Source: Vermamoeba vermiformis
Taxonomy: Eukaryota
Reading direction: 5' to 3'
DNA length: 49,151 nucleotides
NCBI GenBank assembly: GCA_045837725.1
Contig: JBEWZL010000149.1
Coordinates: forward strand, 62,001 to 111,151
A program made the translations under genes and the position numbers. The notes under the pieces are model-generated. The model was given only the letters and a program-made list of their open reading frames with translations, made no database searches and was not told the origin of the DNA. Shown here piece by piece: positions 177-49,151 of this stretch (positions within the stretch are counted from its first letter, which is position 1; each line of letters begins with the position of its first letter).

Positions 177-4071
<3,895 letters not shown>

Positions 4072-10568: not shown

Positions 10569-11353
10569 ATGCCAACTTCCAAACCAGTTCTCGTAGTTGC
10601 TATTGCCCTTTGCTTTGCAACGATTGTTCTTTGCTATGCTCCTGCCAAACCAAAGCCACCAAATCAGTTCCAAGCATCGTACTTCACTCTTGGCTTGCAT
10701 TATGACTTCACACGAATCTACTTTGATGCGATCGGCAAACAGTAAGTGTAGCGAAACTCAAAGCAATCTATAAGCGTATTGTCATCGAGTATTATACTAA
10801 GAAGTTCTATTGTTACAGAATCCGAGTAGATTTTTGGAATCAAAAAGGCGAAAAAACAGATTCGTTCATTCGCTTGTTCAACATTGTAAGTGGTTATTAT
10901 TTATTAGTATCATCGTACCTAACAATTTGATTCATACAGGGCAAGATGTACAAGCTAAACAGCACTGCTTGTGAGTTCTACATGCCGCTTCTTCCTTGGT
11001 CAGATCCGTTTGTTATTTTAAACACTGCTACTTTTGCTGGAAACAGAACTTTGCCTGATGGTTCACTTTGTGACGCATGGGTGAATGACTCTGGTAATTA
11101 TATCAATATTCATTGAAATCGGAACAATTCCTAACTATTACACTTAACTATTATCGCAGGCTTCGGATCTAGTTTTGTCTCGTGCTGGAAAGACAACGTA
11201 ATGAAGTTGCAAATAGTCACCGGTAAAAATGTGCCCTCGGTGATTACTTACACGACTGACTACGAGCCCTACGTGGATAAGAACGTGTTTGAATTGCCTA
11301 AGAACTGCAACAACAATCAGAATGTGCGTGGGAAAAAGCCTCATCGAGCGTAA
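10569..11353 (+). CDS. Secreted ependymin-related (EPDR/LolA-fold-like) protein, 4 exons
   Basis: Signal peptide MPTSKPVLVVAIALCFATIVLC; KPPNQFQASY, IYFDAIGKQIRVD, CDAW and C-terminal VFELPKNC pattern typical of ependymin-related proteins. Confidence 0.6.
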
Positions 11354-26001: not shown

Positions 26002-29000
26002 ATGGGCAAGCAAGTCTCTCGTAAAACGAGAAACATCTTGATTATCTGCGCTGCGGCCTTCGTCGCCGCTGCTGCAGCCGTTCTTCTTGGAGTTTTGCTT
26101 ACTCAATTACCCAAAAACGGTGATAACAATAACCCTCAAGTCGGTAAGCGAATTTTATTCGATCTGCGGTTTAATTTGTTTTTAATTTTTCAATTCATCG
26201 TGACATACATTTGGTCCGGTCCCAACCGAAGATTGACTTTTTAATCCAGAATATCTTCCACAAAGCGCTAAAGGAGAACTGCTTGTTGCTGAAAAAGTCT
26301 GGGCTACTCGTCCAAATGGTGATGCTCTTATTATTGCGAGAAGCTACGACGGAAACGTGTGGGAAGCTATGCCAGATCAAGACAACGAACCTCCACAAAT
26401 TGATTGCAATGACCAAGGTCAATGCACCATGCAGACTGACGGAGAGTTCAAGACTTACTCCGTGTATGTACCTCAACAACTCAAGGAACTTTCTCCAATG
26501 CATCTCGCCTCTCGTCTTCACTTGCAAGCTACCTTCGGTGCTACCAAGGACGAGTTGTTGCGTGTTTCAAGCGCCTACGGCACTGACTACAGCCTCTGGG
26601 TTCTGGATCAAATGAGATTGACTCCTACCTACTCGAGAACGTACTACCGTCAACGTGCTAACGCTCGCCCTGGTCACTTCCAAATGGGACGCACTACCAA
26701 GCCGTGCGATATTGGCTCACGCTGGCACAGCTACTTGTTCGAGGCTACTGACAAGTACCGCTCGCTTCAGATTACTTTGAATAGTGCTGCAAGCCGATTC
26801 GTCATCCGAGTCAACAACGTTGTGCGTGGTGAAGTTACTACCTTATTCAACAAGCCTTATCCCGCCGTTGGCTACACTTTCCCGTTGAACTTGCGCATCT
26901 GCACTGTGATCGAAGAAGTCGGAGGAGCGATGACCCTCACTCTCACCAACCAAACTCAGGTTTGCAACATTGGCTGGAAGAACCCTGCCATCGAATACAT
27001 TACCGCCAGTGCTATTCAAACTTATGGACCCAACGACGCTCTTCTTGACCCTGTCATTGGTGCTCGTACCGGATCTGTCATTCTCAAGAACCGTGTGGTC
27101 TCCTGCACTGGTGCTTCAGATGGTGCCGGTAACTACTACATTCGCCAAGGCAACACCACTTACATCTTCGACGCTCGTATCAAGTTGATGCGCAACACGA
27201 TGGACACACCTTCCTACGTTGAAGCTGCATACACTGGTCAATGCCCTGTTGTTGCCAAGACTTACGAAAATCGTGGCCAATGTGTCAGACGTTCAGCGTG
27301 CAGTGGATCGACTTCATTCAAGTCTGCAACTTTCACTCTTAACGATGACATCCTCCGTGCTTGGTACACCAACTCCTCGCTCTACGTCTACTACGTCACT
27401 GATTTGAGACTCGCTGATCCCTACGACGTGTCTCCTTGCTCTAGTGGTACCTCCCGCTGGCAGCGCATCGTCAAAGGAGCCTGCCCTCAACCTACCAACT
27501 TGGATACTACTACTAAGGCCACTATAGTCGCTGCTCTCACCGCAACTAATGACCCCAATCCTTACGTCCGTGACATCTCGTTGACCGGTGCTAACTGCAA
27601 TCCCGTTAATGCTACTATTGGCGCTCAAATCGATGCTGCTGGTGAATGCTTCCAACACGTTCATCCCGATCTTTACAGCGTTCGTGACTTCACCCGCTGG
27701 GTCGATATTCACGACGGCAACAGCGATGCCATGGCTAACGGAAAGTAAGCTTAAAAAGTATTTTAATCCACGCGTGACGGTTCTAATTATCTTTACAATT
27801 AGCCCCAACCCTATTTCCAAGTGGGCAGAGATTTACAAGCAAACCTTCCTGCCATTCCCTTCCACTCATCCAATGAGCCGCTTCGCTGATCGTCGTGGTT
27901 TTATTCCTCTCGTTGGCCGCTACGGAGACACCATCAACTTCCAAGATCTGTCTACTGATTTGCAAACTGAAGAAATTGCCACTTTGGTTGGCGCTCTGCG
28001 TCCGACCTCTGCTGGTGACAGCTTTGTTGCTTGTGGCTCGTACGGAGAGGTTGAAAACATTGCCGATTTGGGCTACCACTACAACGTGTGGAACTTCAAC
28101 GCCACGGCTTACCAAACCGAATACATGGAATGGCCTGTCCCTGCTAAGACTGATCACTTCACCGTCCTCGAGAACGTCGCTTTGAAGGCAACCGATCAAC
28201 TTCGTCAACGTGTTGCTTGGTCTTTGCTCAATATTGTCACTATTGCCTCACAAGATATCGACTTCCAAGAGTACATTGAAGGCTGGCTCAGCTACTACGA
28301 CATGTTAGTTCGCAACGCTTTCGGCAACTACATGGATGTTATGCGCGATGTATCTTATCACCCTCTGATGGGTCAATACCTCAGCTACTACCAAAACAAG
28401 GCTTACTCTGTCCAAAACAACTACCCCGATGAGAACTACGCTAGAGAAATCATGCAACTTTTCAGCATTGGTTTGTGGCGACTCAACGACGACGGCACTC
28501 AAAAGGTCGACCAAGACGGCGTTCCTATGGAGACTTATACTAACGACGATATCATCGACTTTGCTCGTTTGTGGACTGGTTTTGATCGTCAAGCCATCCG
28601 TGACAACTTTGCCACTATCTTCGCCTTCGGCACTTCTTCCAACTACGTCGACAAGATGCAAATCAGACCTCAATGGCGCGACAGATTCCCCAAGGCCAAG
28701 CTCGACTCTGGTTACCTCGGTGATACTTACCCTCTTTGCGATGACATGCCCGCTCAAGCTTTCTTGCGTGAAGGTGCTCGTTACGAGTTCACTGGCTCGT
28801 TCTCCGTTGAAGGTGACTTGATTGACGCTGAAAATACCACCATTGGTGTTGGTTTGCGTGGCCGTCTCCAACCGTCAACTACCTCAGCCCTTTACCAAGC
28901 CCTCTGCGCTCCTGCTTCAGCTGGTGGTGCTTGCACTTTCCCTCTGACTGTCACTTTGACTTCCAACTTGGCTTGCACCGGTAAAGAATGCAACGCTCAG

Positions 29001-32000
29001 CGCGTCATTGCAGTCAAGATTGTGGATCCTGTTGCTAAGGTCACTCGATACTACCAATACGTCGGCCTGCCTTGCGTCCGCTTGACTCTCTTTGACAACG
29101 GTCAATTGATCAAGCGTGATGGTTCTCGTTCTCAATGCGCTGATCCCACTACTCGCGTGGCCTCACCTACTTGCTGCAGTGGTACCGCCGTTGCATCAAA
29201 CTATACCTCTGAGTGCTTGTTCGCCAACGAAGCCGCTGACTTTGCCACCACTCAACAACGTTGTCAAAGCATGGGTCTTAGCGTCTGCTCCACTAGCCAG
29301 GTTAAACTTGGAACTACTTGGGCTAATTCGTGTGCCCAATATGCCTATGCTTGGACCAACACCTCTTGCTCCGTTCAAGTCCAAGTCTACGCTACTGGTC
29401 AAATCGGTATCGTTGATCCTATTGGCAGCAATTGGTTCAACATTCTCAAGCCCAGCTCGAACAACCTCTTCCGCGTCCGTTGGGATAATGCAGTCTATCC
29501 TCAAGCCGATAACGTTACTTGCCCTGCTGGCTGCGGCTTCCAAGCTACTCCTGATGGCGCTGGTTCTTGCTTGTGCAACTTCACTATCAACGCCGGACCT
29601 ATCTTCGGACAACTCTCCGATCTCAACGGAATCAACGCCGATGACGCTATCAACGCTATTGCCCAAAAGGCATTCGTTGGATCCGTCAAGCCTGGTCTCT
29701 ACGACGAAGGTACTTACTCTACTTGCAGCAGCTCTGAATGCACTCGATTGTCCAACGTCGTTGTCTGGCTGCACAAGGACGACAACGGTGGCTTGAGCGA
29801 GAAAACAATCTTCCAATTGCCTCCTGTTCGTCTTGGTGGTCGCGATCGTTACTTGCTCAACAAGGTCTCGACTGTTGTTGTCAGTGACTCGTACTCCTTC
29901 CGCAATCCTCCTCACTTCACACCGCTCCTCGGTGAGCTCACTGACGTTGCTGCTGACTACCTCTCGGACAACTTGTGGGTCCGCAAGGCTGAGTACGAAG
30001 TGGAGTCATTGCTCGAGCACTTGTTCGAACACGACAACACTGCCGTCTTCGTGTCCTACCGTCTCATTCAACAAATGGTCACTTCCAACCCTTCACCTCG
30101 TTACGTTAAGTCAGTAGTCAATGCCTTCCGCAACGGTGCCGTTGGTGACGTTAGATTCTCTGGCAAGTACGGTGACTTGGGAGCCACTGTCTATGCCATC
30201 TTGATGGACCACGAAGCTCGTTCACCCATCGTTGAAGCAGACAAGACTTACGGCATGTTGCGTGACCCCTTGCTCAAGGTCTACCACTTCATGCGATCGC
30301 TTGGCTACACCTCACCGAAGGGCCGTGAAGTCGCTCTTTGGGACATGGATCAAGTCATTGGTGTGCAGCCTTTCACCGCCCCGACTGTGTTTGGTTTCTA
30401 CTTGCCTGAATACAGACCTCAAGGCCGTGTTGGCGACGCTGGTCTCGTCGGTCCTCAAGTCCAAATTGCCACCACTCCTGCCTTGGTTGGATACCTCAAC
30501 GGCATCACTTCGCTGATTGACAACGGCCTTACCAGCTGCGACGGTGGATTTGCTCTCCCGCAAACCTTTGGACCCCGCACTTGCAATGCTAACGGCCCTA
30601 ACCCCACTGCTGACGGCATCGTCTCGTACACTCCCCCTGACGGTGTTGGCGTTGAAGGTATTATTGATGAGCTCGACATGATTCTCCTTGGCGGCCGCTT
30701 GAACCCTCAAACTCGCGCTACTTTCATCCAAGAGTACAACAACATCTACACGAACGACACTATGGCCCCTCAAGCTTTGCGACACTTGCTCAAGCTCTTT
30801 GCCATCAGCTCCGAGTACCAAACTACCAACATAAACGCTTTGACAACTACGCCACGCACCGAGTCTAATGCAGTGAAGCCTCAAGGTCGCAAGTTCAAGG
30901 CCATCGTCGTCATCTTCGAGTACGGTGGTTGCGACAGTTACAGCTTGCTCGTGCCTCACTCCAACTGCCCCAAGAAGGACATGTACAACGAGTACCGGAC
31001 TGTTCGTACTGACGCTGCTTTGGACAAAAGCGTTCTCTTGCCCATCAACGTCCCTGCTGGCACTCAGCCCTGCAACACGTTCGGTGTTCATCCGATCATG
31101 AAGAACGTACAAGCCCTGTACAACGAAGGCAGCGCTCTCTTCGCTACTAACATTGGTTCGTTGGTTGAGCCCGTCACCAAAGACCAAGTCAACAGACGCA
31201 CTGGCCGCCTTCCTCCTTCACTCTTCGCACACAACATTATGCAACGTAACGTCCAGAACGTGTACGCGCAGTACCTCGCTGCCAATGGTGTGCTCGGTCG
31301 TCTCACTGACGCGCTTTTGGAGAACAACCCGCCTTACGCCTCAGCCCTTTTCAGTCTCAGTGGCAACGTGAAGATGGTCCAAGGCAAACTGCCCGCTGAT
31401 TACCTCTCTGGCTCAGCTGGTGTTGTCAGAGTCCGCAGCTTGAACAAGATTGCGTCTGCTCTCGGAAACATCACTGAATATGTCTCTGACTCCGTGTACG
31501 CTGACACTTACGCTGACACGATGCGCACTTCTGTCGGCAAGACTGAAGTCCTCGGCACACTTCTCGCCAACACCAATCTCACCACAACCTTCGGCAAGAC
31601 CGGTCTTGACTTGCAAATGTCACAAGTTGCCAAGCTGATCAAGTCCATGCCTGACGCCACTGGCATTGAACGTGCCGTGTTCTTCACTTCCCTGGGCGGC
31701 TTTGACACTCACGCCACTTTCGACTTGAGCGCCGTACTTGGGCCCTGTTGACACTGCTGTTGGCAACTTTGCGGCTGAAATGAAGGCTCAGGGCCGATGG
31801 GACGACGTTGTGATTCTTTCTGTGTCAGACTTTGCACGTACTTTGACTAGCAACGGCAAGGGCACTGATCACGCGTGGGGAGGCAATCACTTTGTCGCTG
31901 GTGGCAGCATCAAGGGCGGTCAGATCCTCGGTCACTACCCCGAAATTCTTTCCGACGACGGTCCTCAGATCCTCACTAGAGGTCGTGTTATTCCGACGAT

Positions 32001-32139
32001 GCCTTTTGAAGGCATGTGGAAGGGCATTGCCGAGTGGTTCGGAGTGCCTGCCGACCAAATGGAAAAAGTTTTGCCTAACGTTAACAACTTCCCTGCTGAC
32101 GTCATGTACTCCAAGGAACAGATGTTCAAGAAGTTCTAA
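26002..32139 (+). CDS. ~1,990-aa membrane-anchored DUF1800 + DUF1501 fusion protein (3 exons; apparent +1 insertion near 31741)
   Basis: Introns 26144-26249 and 27745-27802; N-terminal TM anchor; DUF1800 motifs LQATFG, DQLRQRVAW, PDENYAREIMQLFSIGL, VTSNPSPRYV, APTVFGFY; DUF1501 motifs GGCDS, GGFDTH, SDFART, GTDHAWGG. Confidence 0.85.
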
Positions 32140-39406: not shown

Positions 39407-41138
39407 ATGCACGTACAGAGGTGGCTTCCATCATTCGCTAGAACATTATCAACACGGCAAAATATTGCCAGAAAATGCATTCGCACTAGCACACTATTTT
39501 TCTGTACGCCCCAAACAGAAGCATCTAGTTTCTAGATCTTTCGTCACCTCGTTCGCTGCATCCAAAAAAGTATCATTATTTGATACCACAGCTGGTCTTG
39601 AATATTCACCCGGCAAACGGATAGCTGATTCAGTGCCTCACGAGAACAAACCAATCGTAGTTGTCTTTGGATGGCTTGGCGCTTCACGAAAAAATCTTCA
39701 AAAATACGTAGATTGGTATACAGAACGCGGATATGATACTATTGATTATTTAGCACCGAGGTAATTATTCAAAAAACTTGGGAAAATTGGATTTAATTCA
39801 GCAACGAACTTGCGCTTTTACCTTCTTTTTAACGCAATATCATTTCATAATAACTAGTTATATATTTTTGCGATACATTTAGTCGTATGCATATTGATAA
39901 TCAATATACTGCGGTTGAAAATTTCAAACTTGATATTTCTTCTCCCGACGGAATTCCGGTGTTCCGAGTAGCATTCCTTTGCAAAAATTTTATCAATTTT
40001 ATTATTTATAAATAAATAACCGATCAACCTCAGCATGGCCTCGGCGTTCATCACCGCGACAGTACGAACAAGTCACATGGCCATGAAACAACTAGTCGAA
40101 CATTACAACACAGCCGCGCAATCTCATCAACGAGATATAGTCTTCCACGTGCTCAGTTTGAACGGATTTTATCACTATTTGTTCCTATTAATAGAAATGC
40201 GCAATTCGAAGCATCACAGCGATTTATTGAAGCACGTCAAAGGTGTCATTATTGACTCGGCACCAGCACGCATAACTTTTGACATTTTGACACGTGGATT
40301 TGTTGGAGCTGTCATGGGCGTATTCAAGCATAAAGTAAGTATTGCTATATTATATTAAAAGGACGATCGGATCTCGTTTTAAAAATACTTTGACATTTGC
40401 AAACACGTTACTTTCGACAATTGAATTTTTGTTACAAATTCATATTAAGGGCTCGCGATAAATTATACAGGTAGTAGGTGCCTTTGTTAATAAGTAGTGA
40501 CCCGAACACGATGTTGCAAGACGTCTCGGGCACGACCACACTAACAAGAATGCACCGCTTCCCGTCCGATCAGCGAAGTTAAGCTTGTTCAGGCCTTCTT
40601 AGTACTGGGGTAGGAGACTACCTGGGAATCGGAGGTGTTGTGCTCTTTCTCTTTTTTACTTTTTATAGTCCTTCATATTCTTTTATCTTGTTAAATATGA
40701 GGCAAGATCCAGATCCAGATCCGCGTCACATTTTTTTGGCATTTTTGTCGTAAGCTTAACGTTTTTGTTTAGCCTCAATATGAACACCCGATTGTAACAC
40801 CGATATTCAAGTTTTTATGGAGATTAGCATTAGCGAGGCCGAGGAATAGACAATTTATCGATCTGATCCACAAAGAATTAATTCAAGGTCAACCAATCCA
40901 CAGCGATCAATTGTATTTATATAGCACTGCCGATGAGTTAATTCCGCACGAAGAAATAGAGTATCAAATCAACGTCCAGAAAGAGCGCGGAGTCAATGTC
41001 AAAACTCACAATTTTGTGGTCACACCGCACGTGGCTCATTTTAGATTTCAACCTGCGGTATATGGCAAGCTAATAGAGGACTTTTTGGAGAGCAAGTGGA
41101 AGAAACACGACCAACAACAGGATCCGGTTCCTAAATAA
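39407..41138 (+). CDS. TMEM53/DUF829-family alpha/beta-hydrolase-fold protein; start uncertain (39407 needs a 1-nt correction at 39459-39462, or spliced start at 39316)
   Basis: VVVFGWLGASRKNLQKYVDWY, FHVLSLNG, GVIIDSAP, LYLYSTADELIP, PHVAHFRFQPAVY; introns 39761-40033 and 40335-40772. Confidence 0.85.
40528..40646 (+). rRNA. 5S ribosomal RNA gene (119 nt) inside an intron
   Basis: Helix I GGGCACGAC/GTTGTGCTC; conserved CCGATC..GAAGTTAAGC, TTAGTACTGG, GGAGAC, CCTGGGAA; followed by T-rich terminator TTTCTCTTTTTT. Confidence 0.95.
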
Positions 41139-41356
41139 AAATAACCCTTCCACGGTTTTAAGTCGTATTATTATGCTTGACGCTATGGTGGTAACTGCGT
41201 TAGATTCAATCATGATTTTGAAAAAAATAGATAAGTTGGGCTTCGTTTGGAGATCCAAAAATGTTTCTTTTTTAATAGGTAATAGTAATAATACAGGTTT
41301 TAAATAAATAATGCGCAGGTCTATGGTACAAAATGACTATTGATATTGTTGAGGTC

Positions 41357-43457
41357 TTACTCGTCAATAGCATCAAAATTGAGTTTGTTCGATGGTCGCA
41401 GATCTCCTCGGACAGATTTAAATATTTGTGGCCTTTTGAAGGTAAATCCTAATATAGTATGTCGATCTTGCATAACCTTTTGGCCTCGAATAGGCGTTGT
41501 TAGAATATCGAGGTAATGCGGATCGGCATCTGTTTCCTCTTCATTTTCGCTTAAAGAAGACTCTTCATCTTGTCCATTCTCCGTCTGATTTTCTTTATCC
41601 TCATCGTGGCACTATTTATAAATAAAATGAACGTCAAAAAACGAAAAATAAAATTGATAAAATTTTGTACTGGCCGGATGTATCGATTGTTTTAGTTACT
41701 TACGCCTGATGAAGCAAAAGAACTCTTTCCTTTCTCTTTGTCAAATGATCGGTTATGTCGTGATGTACTGCGCCTCTTTTCTTTTTCAGCGGTTTCATTT
41801 TCATTTTCGGATTCGCAGAAGTACGAGGTATCAAGCTCGTCATTGAGCTGTATTATGCAATATTAACGTCTATATAATGTTGATAATAATACGCACCTTT
41901 GGCACGAATAGCGGTTTGACTTGTTTTAAATTGTCCCAATCGAGATCGCGGAAGAACGGATGCGCTTTTATGCTTTGAACGCCATTATTACCTAATCGTT
42001 TATCAGGAGACGTCAAGAATCTAAAATTTAAATCAGAATATGAATTAAAATAAAATTTATAACCACGTACTGTTGAATCAGATCCGTTGCTTCCTCGCTG
42101 AAGTTGGGCCTAATATAAGTCTCTAACATATAGGGGACATATTCTCGCCAGTTCTTAATATTCTCGAAGACGGCATCGGGTGTTTCAGCACTAAATGGCG
42201 CGAATCCTAAGAAAATTAAAGTCAGAAACGAATCCGGTTCGTAACGTTAGAAAGATTCGATTTACCTGTCAACATTTCAAAGAATATGCAGCCAATTGAC
42301 CACCAATCGACCTCTCGACCGTAGCTTCTAGCATTATTATCGTACGTAAGCACTTCTGGGCTCATGTAATCGGGCGATCCGACAACGGAGAACGCTTTTT
42401 GTCTTTTTGTTAAATTTTGGCATGCGTTGAACGGAGTTCCTATAAAAATATTAATAATATGCATATCACATAATATTAGATTATTCTTACGTTGTCCACG
42501 AAGTCCAAATTGTTTTTTGGGCATTGGCGAAGCCAGTACGTGATGCTTGCTCGAAACACCTTCTTTAGAAAGACTAGAAAGACATTAATATAGACGTATT
42601 ATCAATATTTATCGCGTACCCAAAGTCAGTTAGCTTTAATCTACCCTGTGCGTCAATAAGAAAGTTGTCTGGTTTGAGATCCCTGTTTTCAGATGCGTTA
42701 AAAATGGTTCCGTATATGATTAGATGTGATATTAATATACCTATGAATGTACTCGAGCTGGTGTAGGCTATTAACGGCCATAATCATATCGGCTAAATAA
42801 ACTTTGGCTTCGTCTTCCGTCAAAGTCTGCAAATCGTCCAACAGACGGCGCAGATCTCCACCAGGACAATATTCCTAGAATAATACTTGATTAGTAAGAC
42901 CGTAATATGTATTTTATATTTACCATAGCTAAATAGAGCTTTTCGTTATCTTGAAATGAGTACATTAATTGAACCAAATACGACGTTAAATGCTTGGCGA
43001 GCACGTCTCGTTCATTTTTAATATTACGGACCTATATAAATAGTTGATAAGGAGATTTTAATCCAAATAATCAAGCTTACTTTGTTTTTCTTCCAAATAA
43101 GGGATTTTTTCATCATTTTTAATGCTAATAATTCGCCTGTATCCTTCTTTCGACATAAATGGACCTAATAATACGTTATATACGTATATATAGTAGAAAA
43201 GAATAAATACCTCACCAAAGGAGCCTTTTCCAATTTTTTTAAGCAAATGAAAATCTGCTAACGAGATCTTGGGCTTTGGAGCCGCAGATATTTTCATTTC
43301 TAAAGAGAAACGGCAGATATTAATAAAAATATAATTATTTAGGGTAATTCTTACTTTTTCGGAGCTGATCGACCGGAGGATCTGCATACAGCTCGCTTAG
43401 TGGTCGTTTTTTCTCCTTATATTTATGTAATAAGTCTTCAAACTCCTCGGACGCCAT
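41357..43457 (-). CDS. AGC kinase, NDR/LATS/Dbf2-like
   Basis: IGKGSFGEV, ALKMMKK, EYCPGGDL, HRDLKPDN, TDFGLS, AFSVVGSPDYMSPEVL, DWWSIGCI, C-terminal ILGFTFKR hydrophobic motif. Confidence 0.92.
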
Positions 43458-43631
43458 TTCATTAAGACGGTGTTGCGATTTGCTTGGAATTTTAATTGAT
43501 AATACGTCATTTTTGACCGTTACGCATTTAAATCTTTTGGCGCGCAAAAAAAATTGACGCTCAGTTTTTTCCAACCAATGTGAACTTCACATATATTTAC
43601 ATCGTTTATGTTTAAAAAGTAGCTGCATATT

Positions 43632-45428
43632 CTAAACACGTCTAGTATAGACAAAAACATCGTGGGTGAACGGATTCGCGATCTGTAAAGCATTTCTCAT
43701 CGAAAAGAATGCGGCGCCGGTTCCAAATATGCCGAGGCCTAATTAAAGGTATTAATATTGCGAAAAATTACTAAGAAATCGAAGGACGTACCACCCCAAA
43801 GTTGAATCCAGTCAAATCCGTTACGGAAGGCTAAAACAATCATAAAAATGCCCGCGCCGACAGCAGAGAGCAAAGAGAAAGCAACCAAAATTGTCATGTA
43901 ATTTCTCGTGACCACGTTTCGCGCCAACTTGAATCTATTTTCTTCCAATTTTCCTTCGAATTGAGCGTGTACCAGCGCAGCTTCAAATTCAGTGATGGAT
44001 GCTAGTTGATAGATACTTTGACGCGTATTATCGTTCTTATGGATGACCAATTGTCCGTAGTGAGCAATGCCCTCAGTTTTTCTGATTCTAATCTCCTTGA
44101 CCTCGGCCAAATTGACGCTGCTGATGCGAACTTTTCTGGAGGCCTGTTGCGCTATAATAATATTCTTTGAAGTAATAACAATGGCTTGTTTGCGATTCTT
44201 CATTGGCGTAGCGAATCCTAATGTCGGCAACAATACTGCAACGGGCAACATGATTTGTGTTATAGAGGTCCAACCGACAATGATGACCACCAGAATCAAG
44301 CCTAGGTGAAATAAATTAGTTCCAAGAAAATAAAATAAAATTGAATGGTTACTACGTGCCTGATGAAATCCATATGTAAAATCCGAGCATAAACCGAGAT
44401 AAGGAAACAACCAGATCGAGGTGCTGCGTAGTCTCAAGGACGAAATTGACCGCTTGATTTTCTCGCGAAATTTCCTTAGCGATGCTGTACCGCAGTTGAC
44501 TAGTCGTAATATTGTCCAATCCAAATGTAAACTTGTCATTCGCTTCAACATCGTCTTCCACGATCAAGTACTGCGAGGATAATAACTTTTCTTCTTCACT
44601 TGTAGCGGAACCGCGGAACAATTGTAAGACGTACAATAATGCGGTGAATCCAGTTCCAACCAATAAAATAACAAAGGCAGCGAACTAGTGAAATTTGATT
44701 AGTACATCCAAAATAAAAAAGTGTCTATTATCAAATTAAGGAGTGGTGACGTACCTCTGGAACTACTAATGTGTACCATAGACCTAAGATGGAGCTCACT
44801 GCACCAGTAATTGTAAGGCCAAAATAGGTTTCGTGTCGATCGCAAGCCTTGCACATGAAATTAGCATTTTGACTCGTCTCACCGCACTCTCTGCATCTCT
44901 TGTAGTCTCCTATAATATCAGTGTTATTAAAGTTGCCTCTAGAAGACAGGCAAAGGTTAGATCTTACCTCGTGCACCGGAGTTCATTTTGCATCGCAAGT
45001 TTTTTGCTTTAGATGATCTAAACCACGAAAATAAAGTAAAGGCCGTCAAGAGAATCATGGCAATAGTCAGACTAAAGGTTAATTAGTTTTTTAGGTACGG
45101 ATCTACCCCAGACTTACCAAAAGATGACTATGCCGTACTTCGAACAAATGTAAGGAGAAGTCGAAATTCGATTTAGAGCACATGTAAGCTCGGGGCATAT
45201 TTCGTTAGCAAAATTGACCAGGCCAGAACCGGAACACGTTGAGGTGGCATCTAATTTTATTTTAATTTTATTTTTGATAATACGATACGTACTCTTTAAT
45301 GTAAGACAAGTATTTGTTTCAGGGCACCACTGGCAAAATTCCCCACTAGTGAAATTAATCGCGTTTGTTGGCAGATTCCACTGATCAATTAAACAATCGC
45401 CACAACTGGAGGCAGTGCTGCAACTCAT
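43632..45428 (-). CDS. Uncharacterised multi-pass membrane protein with Cys-rich PSI-like N-terminus and CxxC..CxxC motif
   Basis: CSTASSCGDCL..CQWCPETNTC; CRECGE..CKACD; several hydrophobic segments; continuous frame requires a GC-AG intron 44302-44359. Confidence 0.7.
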
Positions 45429-45671
45429 TCTGTGTTACTCGATTGCTCAGGTACTTAAAATACATTCGCGGATACTTGTTGTTTAAATAGTTTGGTTTAA
45501 AATTATCCGTTTTCCTTTTTTTCGTGTTTTGGAACTTTTGGCGGCCAAGAAAATTCAGTACGTCACCAAAATCTGAGTACATTGCTTTTCCCTAATGCAT
45601 CCTAACGTATCATTGTGCCATAATTTTTAGCAGAAATAACGGATTTAAAGGGCTTTCAAGCTCGATCTTTT

Positions 45672-45837
45672 TTAATTACCGACAGTGTTCATGCGATCAA
45701 CAAGGCATAGAACAGCTCGATCAATGGAAGTGGTTCATTGCACGAAAAAGTGCTTCGACCGAGTGGCTTCAAACGAGTGTTTGGGGACCTCATCATAATT
45801 TTGGAAACGCGATGGCTGCGCAAAGCGCGCTGTCGCC
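45672..45837 (+). ncRNA. U1 snRNA-like gene with non-canonical 5' end (variant or pseudogene)
   Basis: SL1 stem TGTTC-ATGC/GCAT-A-GAACA with loop GATCAACAAG; SL2 loop ATTGCAC (45737-45743); SL3; Sm site AATTTTGG (45797-45804); SL4 45809-45836; length ~166 nt. Confidence 0.85.
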
Positions 45838-45983
45838 ACTCAATAACAAAGAAATAAACGGGGAAATGTGAGAGGAAAATTCAATTGAGGTGATTTTCGA
45901 ATACACTTCGAAGAACGGTTCTTTCGGCCGACCTCTTACGAGCATTTTTTGTTAAAGTTCATTTTATTTGTTTGTTTCGTTAT

Positions 45984-47691
45984 TTATTCGCTTGGAGCAC
46001 CGCTTTTGGCCTTTTCTGCTTCTTTTTCTTTCTTCAACTCGGTAACTAACGAAATTAATTCAACGTTAATCTTAGATGCGTCCGTCGCATGCTTGATCGC
46101 GTCATCCAGTCTGCCTTCAAGTCTAGCAATAACGGCCAAATTAAAGTGAGCAGTTGCAAAATTAGGTTCTATTTGAGCAGCTCGTTCAAACAACTTTCGA
46201 GCCTCATCCATTTTGCCAGCTTGTTGTAGCGCATCTAGAATAACGTAAGTTCAATTATGTAGAATAGTTAACTATGATATATTATACGTACTAGCTTTGT
46301 TGGAGATTGCAACTACGTTATTTCCATTAATTTCAATCGCCTTATCGTAAAATTGCAAGCTTTCATCCACCTTATTCTGTTTCAAACAAATGTTGGCTAA
46401 TTTCAAACAAATTTCATCCGATTTTGAATCGAGTGCAAATGCTCTTCTATAATAACCTTCAGCCTTCTCGTAATGATTCAATCTGTCGTGACTTAAGGCC
46501 AAGTTGACTAAGACTTCGTAATCATCAGGGATTCATTTCTTCTACGCGTTCAAAGTGTTTAATAGCGTCTTCATATTTAAGCAAATTAAAGTACGTCGTG
46601 CCAAGCGTGAAATGCGCTGTTGTTTCCATCGGGTTGAGTTCTACGGCGTGCGTCAACACTTTCTGTGCTTCATCGTACTTCTCCATAGAGAAATAAAGAG
46701 TGCCTAAGCATTAATACGTCAGAAAATAAATTACATCAGCAACGGATGTGCATCTGGATCGTAACCTAAATTTCTCTTCGGGAAAAAGAATTAATGCCAT
46801 CGACTAGTAGTATGATATAATATGCGATATGTAATTACGATATTCGATGGTCGCAAATGAAAGTTAAGCGGATCTGACTTACCCAAGTTAGAATAAACTT
46901 CAGGGTTGTTGGGATCGACTTCTTTAGCTTTCAACAAGGACTCGATCGCTTCATCCTTCTTGTGCAAGAAAAATAAAGAAATACCACGCTTGTTAAGAGC
47001 ACTAGCGTAATTACTATCGAGGGATAAAACTTTGTCGAACATTTTCAACGCGGTCGCGTGATCTCCTAAATTTTGGTAGGCAACTCCGCTATAGTGATAA
47101 GCCTACGAGAGTATTATTATTTAAATAATACTATTTTTAATGATAATTGAGTACCTGCAAGTAATCTGGATCCACTTCCAGCGCTTTGTTCAACACGTAG
47201 ATCGCTTCTTGGTAGTCTTTATTTTTCAAATGGCAAAATCCGAGAGCGACATATGCCTCTTTATTTCCAGGATTGATTTTAAGTTCTTTTTGGAACGCTG
47301 ATGTTGCAGGACCAATATTTCTGAAATATACGATCAGATCTTCGTTCTGACAATTTTCAAAAATATTTGCTTACTGGTTTCTTAAATAATGCAACCCCAT
47401 CTCCATATAATCCACGGTCTTTCTCTTCGCCATTTCATCCCGGCTAAATTAATAAAATTTTAATTATTATTTTCTAACGCGTAAATAATCATGTTTAACT
47501 TACCTGAGCGGTTTCATCGATACGTTTTTAGACGTAGAAAAATATTTTACATTTGATCGATGAACTTCTGATTGTCGGAAAAGAGTTTGATGAATCTGCT
47601 TTTTGTTAGCAGATCGCTTTCCAGATACAATAGTTGGCCTAGTGGATCTCGACACTACAGTCGATATGTTGCGGATACATCTTGCTAACAT
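45984..47691 (-). CDS. TPR-repeat protein with probable mitochondrial presequence; apparent +1 insertion at 46528-46530
   Basis: MLARCIRNISTVVSRSTR..; repeated TPR units such as AIESLLKAKEVDPNNPEVYSNLG and FERAAQIEPNFATAHFNLA. Confidence 0.88.
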
Positions 47692-47845
47692 TGTTTGTGG
47701 TTTGTAGTTCAGGAGTGAGCTCAACAAGTCACTTGTTTGAAAAAATGACAAAAGACGCAGCAGCGCACGAAACATTATAGTTCAAATACTGAGAGTCAGA
47801 CCACATAACTCAGCTAACTTTTACATAGTACGGGTGTACGGTATT

Positions 47846-49151
47846 ATGGTAATATCTTGGCAAAAGCGGAAATCGTTGAATTACTAATGTGGTTAGGAGG
47901 ACTTGCATCACGTAGAATTTCATTCGCTTCCAAATGAAGTTCAAAAGCTATTAGTTTCTTGGTTGAATTTAGATCTGCGTAGCGCTTTAAGGTAATTGAA
48001 TTGATCGATAAAAACCAGCAATTTTATTTTTAAAAATGTTGTAAGAGCTTACTCTTCACTTCCCAATAGTAGTACTACCAGCTGTACATGATTTCATAAT
48101 TTTACGTAATATTTTGGAATTTCTGAACGCCAGCAAACGCATCGACAACTATTTTTAACTCATCAAACCTAGGCTTCAAGCAATAAGCAAGACGTTCAAA
48201 CAACACGTCTGGGAAACATTATCACGCTTTGATTGCGCGTCAGTTGCTGAATCCGCTGTTCAAACTTTACTGGATCGGGTCATCCCCGCTGCATTGCTTA
48301 ATTTAGATTTATCGAGTAGATATAACTATTATTAGTACCTAACAAAAAAGCGGCTAATTGTTGTTAGGACGCGGAGAGGCTCTTGGATCCGAAGAAATTT
48401 TTAACCTTCGAAAAAAATTTCCGAATCTCATTACCCTTGCTGTTAAATTCAAAATATATGGGATGAACTTGGAGCATATCAAACATATTTTAGAGGAGCA
48501 GTCTGGTTCGTTAGCAGAATTAGCGTTCTATGGTGAAGCGCCTGAACTAGATTACATAAAGAACGCTTCAAGAACTCTACGTGTTATCATCAACAACATG
48601 GGAGAAGGCATCGGAGTATCGAACTTCAGCGACGAGGATATGGGCACTATTAATTTCAACGTGCCTACGGTTTACGTTAATTATCAACAGCAAGATCCGA
48701 TCCAAATCCAACAAAACGTAACCTGTGGTTCTTCGCTTGGAGACTACACGCTTATCGGAACAGAGAGCGGTACATTATACATATACAAAGACACTAAGAG
48801 TGATGCCGGGCTGGTTTTAGAACGCGTTGTGTCAGATGTACATTCTGAGCGGATCAACTCTATTACTCTCGCGCATGACCAGCTTGTAGTGGCATCTATG
48901 GTAAGATTACACTTTATAAATATCACTTTTCAGATATTTTTAAACTGTCGTAAAATATCATCAACATTGGTTCATGCATTAAATTTCCTTTTTAGGATGG
49001 TTTCGTATCGGCGTGGGTTCTGGATTCAGAGGAAGGCAATGGGGTTCCTATTTTGGCATTGAAGACTCAGATCCAGTTTTATCAACCTATCTACTACGCT
49101 TTCTATCACAAGTCATCGGAATACTATTTGGCTGCTTCCAAGCGAACGGTC
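47846..49151 (+). CDS. F-box protein with downstream WD40-like repeats (runs off the window)
   Basis: ATG-only first coding exon, then FHSLPNEVQKLLVSWL..ALRLQAISKTF (F-box); IGTESGTLYIY and VHSERINSITL..LVVASMDG (WD40-like). Confidence 0.7.

Follow-up and report, generated by a model that had tools for sequence, protein, structure and literature searches.

The window analysed here, by which we mean the whole stretch of 49,151 nucleotides, carries on its plus strand at 45672-45837 a gene of the U1 snRNA family whose segment for pairing with the 5' splice site is altered. Its 5' end reads UUAAUUACC-GA, compared to the canonical U1 head ACUUACCUG, which is complementary to CAG/GUAAGU. We tentatively read the gene as a functional variant paralog of U1, a reading to which we give somewhat less than an even chance, and it is probably a side-copy rather than the main U1 of the organism. 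The sequence ACUUAC of U1 is among the most conserved RNA sequences of eukaryotes, and we know of only a few lineages in which it is altered.

Membership in the U1 family and anatomy of the RNA

In a search with the covariance model RF00003 (U1), all model positions (1-166 of 166) aligned to 45672-45837 on the plus strand with a score of 30.2 bits, corresponding to an E-value of 1.2e-5 in a 901-base search and of 6.6e-4 when the whole window was searched against 4227 families. The score is below the Rfam gathering threshold of 69.5 bits, and the gene therefore goes unreported in a default Rfam scan, which returned only a 5S rRNA gene in the window. No Rfam family besides U1 matched at E-values up to 10 in 45300-46200, and a second U1-like match was absent from the window with both RF00003 and a body-only model. 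The pattern of three motifs with their spacing (SL1 loop, SL2 loop and Sm site) was found at a single place in the window and was absent from all 100 shuffles. The full-length alignment, together with the three correctly spaced motifs, places the locus in the U1 family, though far under the curated threshold. The body-only covariance model, R1, was built from environmental U1 genes and matched 45681-45839 with 29.2 bits (E 1.9e-9; next-best match 9 bits); its panel was picked by the candidate's own three motifs, which makes this match partly circular, and we give it little weight, the consensus structure having caught only 28 pairs. The features of the locus and its immediate surroundings are as follows.

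45255, minus strand: poly(A) site of a small flanking gene, from loose T-runs in three RNA runs
45616-45623, plus strand: TGCCATAA, the upstream element of the initial annotation (sequence present only)
45643-45650, plus strand: TATA-like ATTTAAAG, 24-31 nt upstream of A45674, a putative promoter element
45650-45673, plus strand: short hairpin followed by a six-T run, abutting the gene start
45672-45837, plus strand: U1-type snRNA gene over the full Rfam alignment length (RF00003, 30.2 bits), likely RNA start A45674
45674-45682, plus strand: 5' splice-site pairing region AATTACC-GA (RF00003 alignment)
45686-45714, plus strand: stem-loop 1, 9 pairs, one bulged A, 10-nt loop (folds)
45695-45704, plus strand: SL1 loop GATCAACAAG (RNA: GAUCAACAAG), read directly, on a 9-bp closing stem, putative U1-70K site
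45715-45764, plus strand: stem-loop 2, 15 pairs, an internal loop extra to the consensus, one G-A mismatch
45737-45743, plus strand: SL2 loop ATTGCAC (RNA AUUGCAC), exact match, putative U1A site
45765-45789, plus strand: stem-loop 3, 10 pairs, one bulge (folds)
45795-45804, plus strand: Sm site ATAATTTTGG (RNA: AUAAUUUUGG), between SL3 and SL4, one base shorter than the Rfam consensus
45809-45836, plus strand: stem-loop 4, G+C-rich terminal hairpin, 12 pairs, one bulge (folds)
45984-45986, minus strand: stop codon of the TPR-repeat flanking gene

When pairing was barred in the 5' end, the two loops and the Sm site, the RNA took the shape of the U1 cloverleaf, its four stem-loops holding 46 pairs in total (-46.9 kcal/mol). 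The unconstrained minimum was -51.9 kcal/mol (z -1.94 against shuffles), and the SL2 loop is partly paired in that fold. Stem-loops 1, 3 and 4 together comprise 31 pairs that are free of mismatches and interrupted by three single-base bulges only, and the environmental panel described below agrees with the candidate at 26 loop and Sm positions. The irregularities consist of bulges at nt 38, 116 and 146, the insertion in SL2 and its G-A mismatch; helix H, which closes the four-way junction, is Watson-Crick in two of its four consensus pairs. We take the SL1 and SL2 loops to be the binding sites of U1-70K and U1A, respectively, as they are in other organisms. Direct reading, the RF00003 alignment and the constrained fold thus bear out the initial annotation in that SL1 loop, SL2 loop, Sm site and SL4 are all in place. 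The candidate shares with canonical U1 its length of 166 nt, the order and spacing of SL1 to SL4, both loop motifs and the Sm site; it differs in its weak helix H, its score and its 5' end, where three of 12 positions are changed. That the resemblance to U1 is fortuitous, or that the locus encodes another small RNA, appears very improbable to us. The score under the gathering threshold would be in keeping with such an origin, as would the modest z-score of the minimum free energy, with equally good folds in seven of 200 shuffles, but neither accounts for an alignment over the full model length, for three U1-specific motifs in the right order and spacing, or for the lack of matches to other families around the locus.

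The sequence at 45672-45680 is TTAATTACC, followed by GACAG to 45685. Compared to the consensus, there is A for C at position 4 and U for A at position 1, a base is missing after ACC, and A replaces G two bases on; the changes (three) cluster in the 12-nt 5' end. In the textbook register, position 4 of U1 (C4) pairs with donor position +5. Both the reading of a non-canonical end, AAUUACC-GA, on a U1-type gene and its best pairing partner by this register, G/GUAAUU, had been put forward before, and both stand.

The altered end is real in the DNA. A Logan DNA contig of the public run X2 (record 7, 821 nt) is identical to 45417-46237, with no differences and no gaps across the gene and its flanks; X2 is possibly the source sample of the window and does not represent independent biology. 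A consensus-polishing artefact at the 5' end is excluded by this contig, and an assembly error is unlikely. The contig has a depth of 565.6, compared to 528.7-711 for neighbouring contigs. Since it runs unbroken through the gene at the depth of its flanks, the gene appears to be single-copy and to share no 31-mers with another abundant locus of the genome, and a recent near-identical duplicate is unlikely. In the flanking genes, the X2 DNA contigs have numerous alternative letters, six of them between 44553 and 44643, for instance. Three RNA runs with the same species label (X21-X23, about 13 million records each) gave 13, 27 and 24 reads on 8452 bases (40700-49151) and are uninformative on U1 expression; most of their reads are 95-99% alike to the window. 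Taken together, this similarity and the alternative letters suggest that one species name covers divergent strains or haplotypes.

Surroundings of the gene and U1 genes from the environment

The genes of this eukaryotic window are densely packed, their exons measuring roughly 100 amino acids and their introns about 46-60 nt. The candidate lies alone in a spacer of roughly 400 nt between two genes on the minus strand. No open reading frame of at least 50 amino acids covers its 5' end, and Pfam gave nothing usable on the small neighbouring open reading frames. For a neighbouring open reading frame of 274 amino acids, only three homologues (59-64% identity) were found among 5.8 billion proteins; the lineage is poorly sampled. 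Part of the window is also represented in water metagenomes.

Several observations concern other parts of the window. The 5S rRNA gene lies at 40528-40646 (plus strand, 104.7 bits), inside a 436-nt intron (40336-40771) of a DUF829 gene; it has the same strand as its host gene and is followed by a T-run. The TPR-repeat gene contains two in-frame stops at about 46520-46530 (minus strand) unless one base is skipped in AATCCCTGATGA; this apparent frameshift is either real or a homopolymer error, and the X2 contigs list no indel there. At 26237-32136 on the plus strand, overlapping open reading frames of 503 and 1388 amino acids in different frames, together with one of 136 amino acids, encode a nearly intronless DUF1800/DUF1501 protein. 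The G+C content of this region is 49-54%, compared to 36-44% around it, and the nearest Atlas cluster is eukaryotic and diatom-rich (0.93); a second Atlas comparison yielded weak plant WD40 matches (0.83), and neither gave a placement of the lineage. The gene may have been acquired, and there may be a frameshift or a small intron near 27600-27750.

Metagenome contigs were scanned with the candidate's three motifs, which yielded 31 loci with 21 distinct U1 genes, a sample chosen by motif and not at random. Rfam returned 24 U1 matches on 20 distinct loci, four further paralogs included, with scores of 56-167 bits; the 30.2 bits of the candidate are the lowest U1 score of the analysis. None of the 31 metagenome loci is a close relative, the highest identity being 49%. 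A 21-nt probe had one match in prokaryote genome contigs, in bacterial sequence without U1 features, which we dismissed as chance, and none in viral contigs. The SL1 loop variant of the candidate is found in the 31 metagenome loci as well, where it mostly accompanies canonical 5' ends. The identity of the candidate to the 21 environmental genes is 40-49%, and its stems are kept through different sequence, which speaks for constraint on the body.

Among 25 distinct environmental U1 genes, the 5' end is ACUUACC in 19 and cut by the contig end in one, and the remaining five deviate. The deviating ends are found at these loci.

L005
L016/L023
L027, two copies
L029, copy at 456-616

All 24 environmental genes with a visible 5' end, the five deviants included, have C at position 4, and A at this position has no parallel in the sample. 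One of these loci is L027, a 2.1-kb marine metagenome contig that carries three divergent U1-like genes together with a U5 gene at 1426-1531 and a U2 gene at 1710-1822.

L027, 127-269: U1-like, head ACGUACC, 71.6 bits
L027, 551-713: U1-like, head ACAUACC, 56.0 bits
L027, 973-1134: U1-like, head ACUUACC, 80.7 bits

These look like a natural set of U1 paralogs varying at the base that faces donor position +4. A comparable pair is formed by L016:975-1132 and L023, with ACGUACC, and L012:600-757 and L013, with ACUUACC; the two forms have 92% identity along 191 nt and lie in unrelated flanking sequence, and the contig names of L013 and L016 have a sample prefix in common. At 66.1 bits, the ACGUACC copy of L016 stays under the Rfam gathering score. 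A different deviation was observed at L005:963-1125 (minus strand, U1 at 81.4 bits), where the head AUACUAACAAUG has no likeness to the complement of any donor and is similar to a branch-site word. U1 paralogs with altered heads thus occur in nature, and some differ considerably from each other. The L027 and L016/L023 versus L012/L013 sets resemble the candidate in being divergent U1-like paralogs with altered 5' ends, some of them below the gathering score; unlike it, the L027 and L016/L023 sets vary at position 5 (donor +4) and keep C4, and they are 41-46% identical to it.

The environmental genes also inform on the region upstream of the candidate. In most of those recovered, TATAAA is located about 30 nt upstream of the first base, and several have a T-rich stretch just before it. 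By analogy, ATTTAAAG is a better-placed promoter candidate than TGCCATAA, with chance occurrence in the A+T-rich spacer a possible explanation. The proposal that TGCCATAA is an upstream element finds no support, as it has no conserved counterpart upstream of the environmental U1 genes. A scan for terminator-like sites returned one site, the hairpin and T-run at 45650-45673, compared to 0.6 expected from shuffles; the scan is of bacterial type and not meaningful for a eukaryote.

Local donor sites and the altered head

We curated 33 donor sites by hand according to protein sense across the junctions and re-read their coordinates. They derive from a mitochondrial-type aconitase gene (15), an AGC-type kinase gene (12), the TPR gene (5) and the DUF829 gene (1). 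Three of the 12 kinase-gene donors have read support; in this gene, RNA reads support an intron of 46 nt (7 reads) as well as two ends of exons. The bases at the 33 donors are distributed as follows.

Donor +3: A 32
Donor +4: A 19, C 10, T 4
Donor +5: G 21, A 8, T 4, C 0
Donor +6: T 19

The most frequent hexamers are GTACGT (7), GTAAGT (5) and GTAAGA (4), and GTAAT occurs only twice. A plausible 34th donor, GAG/GTAATT at 39761, would bring +5 T to five of 34. We scored pairing as the number of Watson-Crick pairs from -1 to +6, using the end of locus L019 as the canonical one, and the canonical end paired better than that of the candidate at 21 of the 33 donors, equally well at 8 and worse at 4. 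The head is thus not complementary to the dominant donor, which has G at +5, and it pairs better than the canonical end at four of the 33 sites only. Across the window, GTAATT was seen 45 times (49.8 expected), compared to 47 for GTAAGT (25.4 expected) and 38 for GTACGT (21.3 expected).

These counts do not support the earlier suggestion that GTAATN donors are common here: with GTAAT at two and +5 T at four of 33 donors and no enrichment of the GTAATT hexamer, such donors account for only some one in eight to one in sixteen. Three of the six GTAATN sites cited in its favour were examined; those at 2003 (minus strand) and 39761 are backed by protein homology, and the one at 11094 appears only in an unreliable automatic list. 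Automatic approaches did not contribute to the donor set. A first intron finder was overrun by false sites and discarded, and filtering for a single possible donor likewise gave mostly false sites. A second finder listed 61 GTA donors (+5 G 38, T 13, A 8, C 2) and was set aside as unreliable because it called at least one wrong donor (2685-2751, where homology supports 2736) and was biased by its own matrix.

Donors with GTACGT include those at 3160, 2736, 2527, 2434, 924, 42070 and 46291 (minus), and GTACGC and GTGCGT were observed besides; G follows at +5 in eight of nine donors with C at +4. Since no donor hexamer is more frequent than GTACGT (7 of 33), we would expect another locus of this genome to encode a U1 of the ACGUAC type, which has been reported for Mastigamoeba.

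Variant paralog, decaying copy or main U1

The reading that we prefer would run as follows. In an intron-rich microbial eukaryote, a structurally intact, single-copy gene of the U1 family has AAUUACC in the place of ACUUACC. It would be transcribed from a TATA-type snRNA promoter with a start near A45674, and the RNA would assemble with Sm proteins, U1-70K and U1A as any U1 does. Its UUACC would pair with donor positions -1 to +4 and leave the usual G at +5 unpaired, and the particle might therefore be suited to no more than the few donors with U at +5, or serve as a weak or regulatory U1. Since G at +5 is kept by most local donors, the gene would be an old variant paralog, accompanied at another place in the genome by a canonical U1 and perhaps by one of the ACGUAC type as well. 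The constrained body, the absence of signs of a fresh copy, the concentration of changes in the head, the TATA-like element at -31 to -24 and the gene's own spacer argue for this variant paralog, as does, by analogy, the existence of divergent U1 paralogs with altered ends (L027; L016 versus L012). It is weakened by the lowest U1 score of the analysis, by the irregularities of helix H (2 of 4) and SL2 (insertion and G-A mismatch), which could be decay, by an A at position 4 for which we found no functional precedent, and by the small number of donors that would profit (4 of 33). In a wider form, for which the prospects are distinctly poorer, the genome would hold several U1 snRNAs with different heads, and the candidate would be one of them, functional, and the first known case in which a U1 has exchanged the otherwise invariant C4. 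Donors with U at +5 would then be its targets, or it would be a deliberately weak U1, or, in a bolder version, the only U1, with pairing at +5 abandoned.

The most serious competitor of the variant paralog is a pseudogene: the organism would have a U1 of its own that is just as divergent, and the candidate would be a defunct copy of it with a small number of mutations, three of which fall in the 5' end. We consider this unlikely, if a little less so than the set of several U1 snRNAs just described. Such a copy would explain the score of 30.2 compared to 56-167 bits and three changes in the most conserved segment of U1, among them the loss of a C4 kept in 24 of 24 environmental genes; a weak helix H, an irregular SL2 and a Sm site one base short would follow, as would a head that misfits the local donors. 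Moreover, no transcript was seen, with the RNA runs barely mapping, and each irregularity could be a single mutation, spaced so as to explain the absence of shared 31-mers. Against decay stand the 31 mismatch-free pairs of SL1, SL3 and SL4 and the 26 intact loop and Sm positions. Neutral decay would consist mostly of substitutions that break pairs, whereas the deviations seen here are mainly bulges; stem-breaking substitutions, truncation or lost motifs, as expected of a pseudogene, were not found, and the irregularities of SL2 and helix H are compatible with early decay. Nor does the gene appear to be near-identical to a functional master copy, the X2 contig spanning gene and flanks at single-copy depth. 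This contig argues against a recent copy and weakens the option of a recent pseudogene raised in the initial annotation. A TATA-like element at the usual distance and an intergenic slot of its own in a compact genome are further points against a dead copy. Changed or relaxed selection on the head alone fits the pattern better than decay of the whole gene.

It is also conceivable, and in our view improbable, that the candidate is the main or only U1 of a divergent lineage with A at position 4. Pairing with U6, not with U1, would in that case keep G at donor +5. The gene is single-copy and appears to share no 31-mer with another abundant locus, and the low Rfam score could be an effect of a poorly sampled lineage, to which the few homologues of the 274-aa open reading frame testify. 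The donors themselves are loose beyond GTA, +5 being G in no more than 21 of 33 and A in 8. In small protist genomes a single U1 is frequent, and the Entamoeba preprint gives one candidate per species; a sole U1 may also mismatch the dominant donor, as is known from yeast at +4. In contrast, the donors give no sign of co-evolution, as U at +5 (4 of 33) is below the background of A+T-rich introns and G is commonest. C4 is present in 24 of 24 environmental genes and in every modified U1 that the preprint names (ACAAAC, ACGUAC and ACAUAC). The 5S rRNA gene of the window scores normally (104.7 bits), which indicates that the RNAs of this organism are not divergent across the board.

Variant and atypical U1 genes are already known, and it is the change at position 4 that sets the candidate apart from both human variant U1 RNAs and the sets of Amoebozoa. 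Of human variant U1 RNAs, 52% are changed in the 5' splice-site region (PMC3561869), and only a few affect splicing when tested (PMC10870369). They combine, like the candidate, a U1 body with protein-binding sites and a changed region for 5' splice-site pairing, and their role in splicing is uncertain; the misfit between head and the bulk of donors is a further resemblance. Unlike the candidate, with its single copy, unique body and compact protist-like genome, they form large and recent gene families a few bases off U1, and they sit beside canonical U1 genes, while a canonical partner of the candidate is an assumption of ours. In Amoebozoa, co-evolved U1 RNAs with ACAAAC in Entamoeba and ACGUAC in Mastigamoeba balamuthi and a mixed set of standard and modified (ACAUAC) U1 in Physarum are reported in a preprint (bioRxiv 10.1101/2022.06.08.495308). 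These RNAs share with the candidate the four stem-loops, the sites for 70K, U1A and Sm and a modified pairing sequence, and they too were found by covariance searches and score poorly with the standard model. Their changes, however, face donor +3 or +4, match the dominant donor and retain C4, whereas the change in the candidate faces +5 and mismatches the dominant G (21 of 33). The literature, supplements apart, gave no match for a U1 head AAUUACC or for comparable protist U1 heads, and nothing relevant on rotifer U1.

If the gene is a pseudogene, the finding is an ordinary one. The candidate and two environmental variants score below the Rfam gathering score, and standard annotation thus misses exactly those U1 genes that have unusual heads. 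If the gene is functional, its A at position 4 would make clear that the pair between C4 and G5 itself can be lost or repurposed, and nature would have provided an experiment on how far U1, as opposed to U6, governs the choice of donors.
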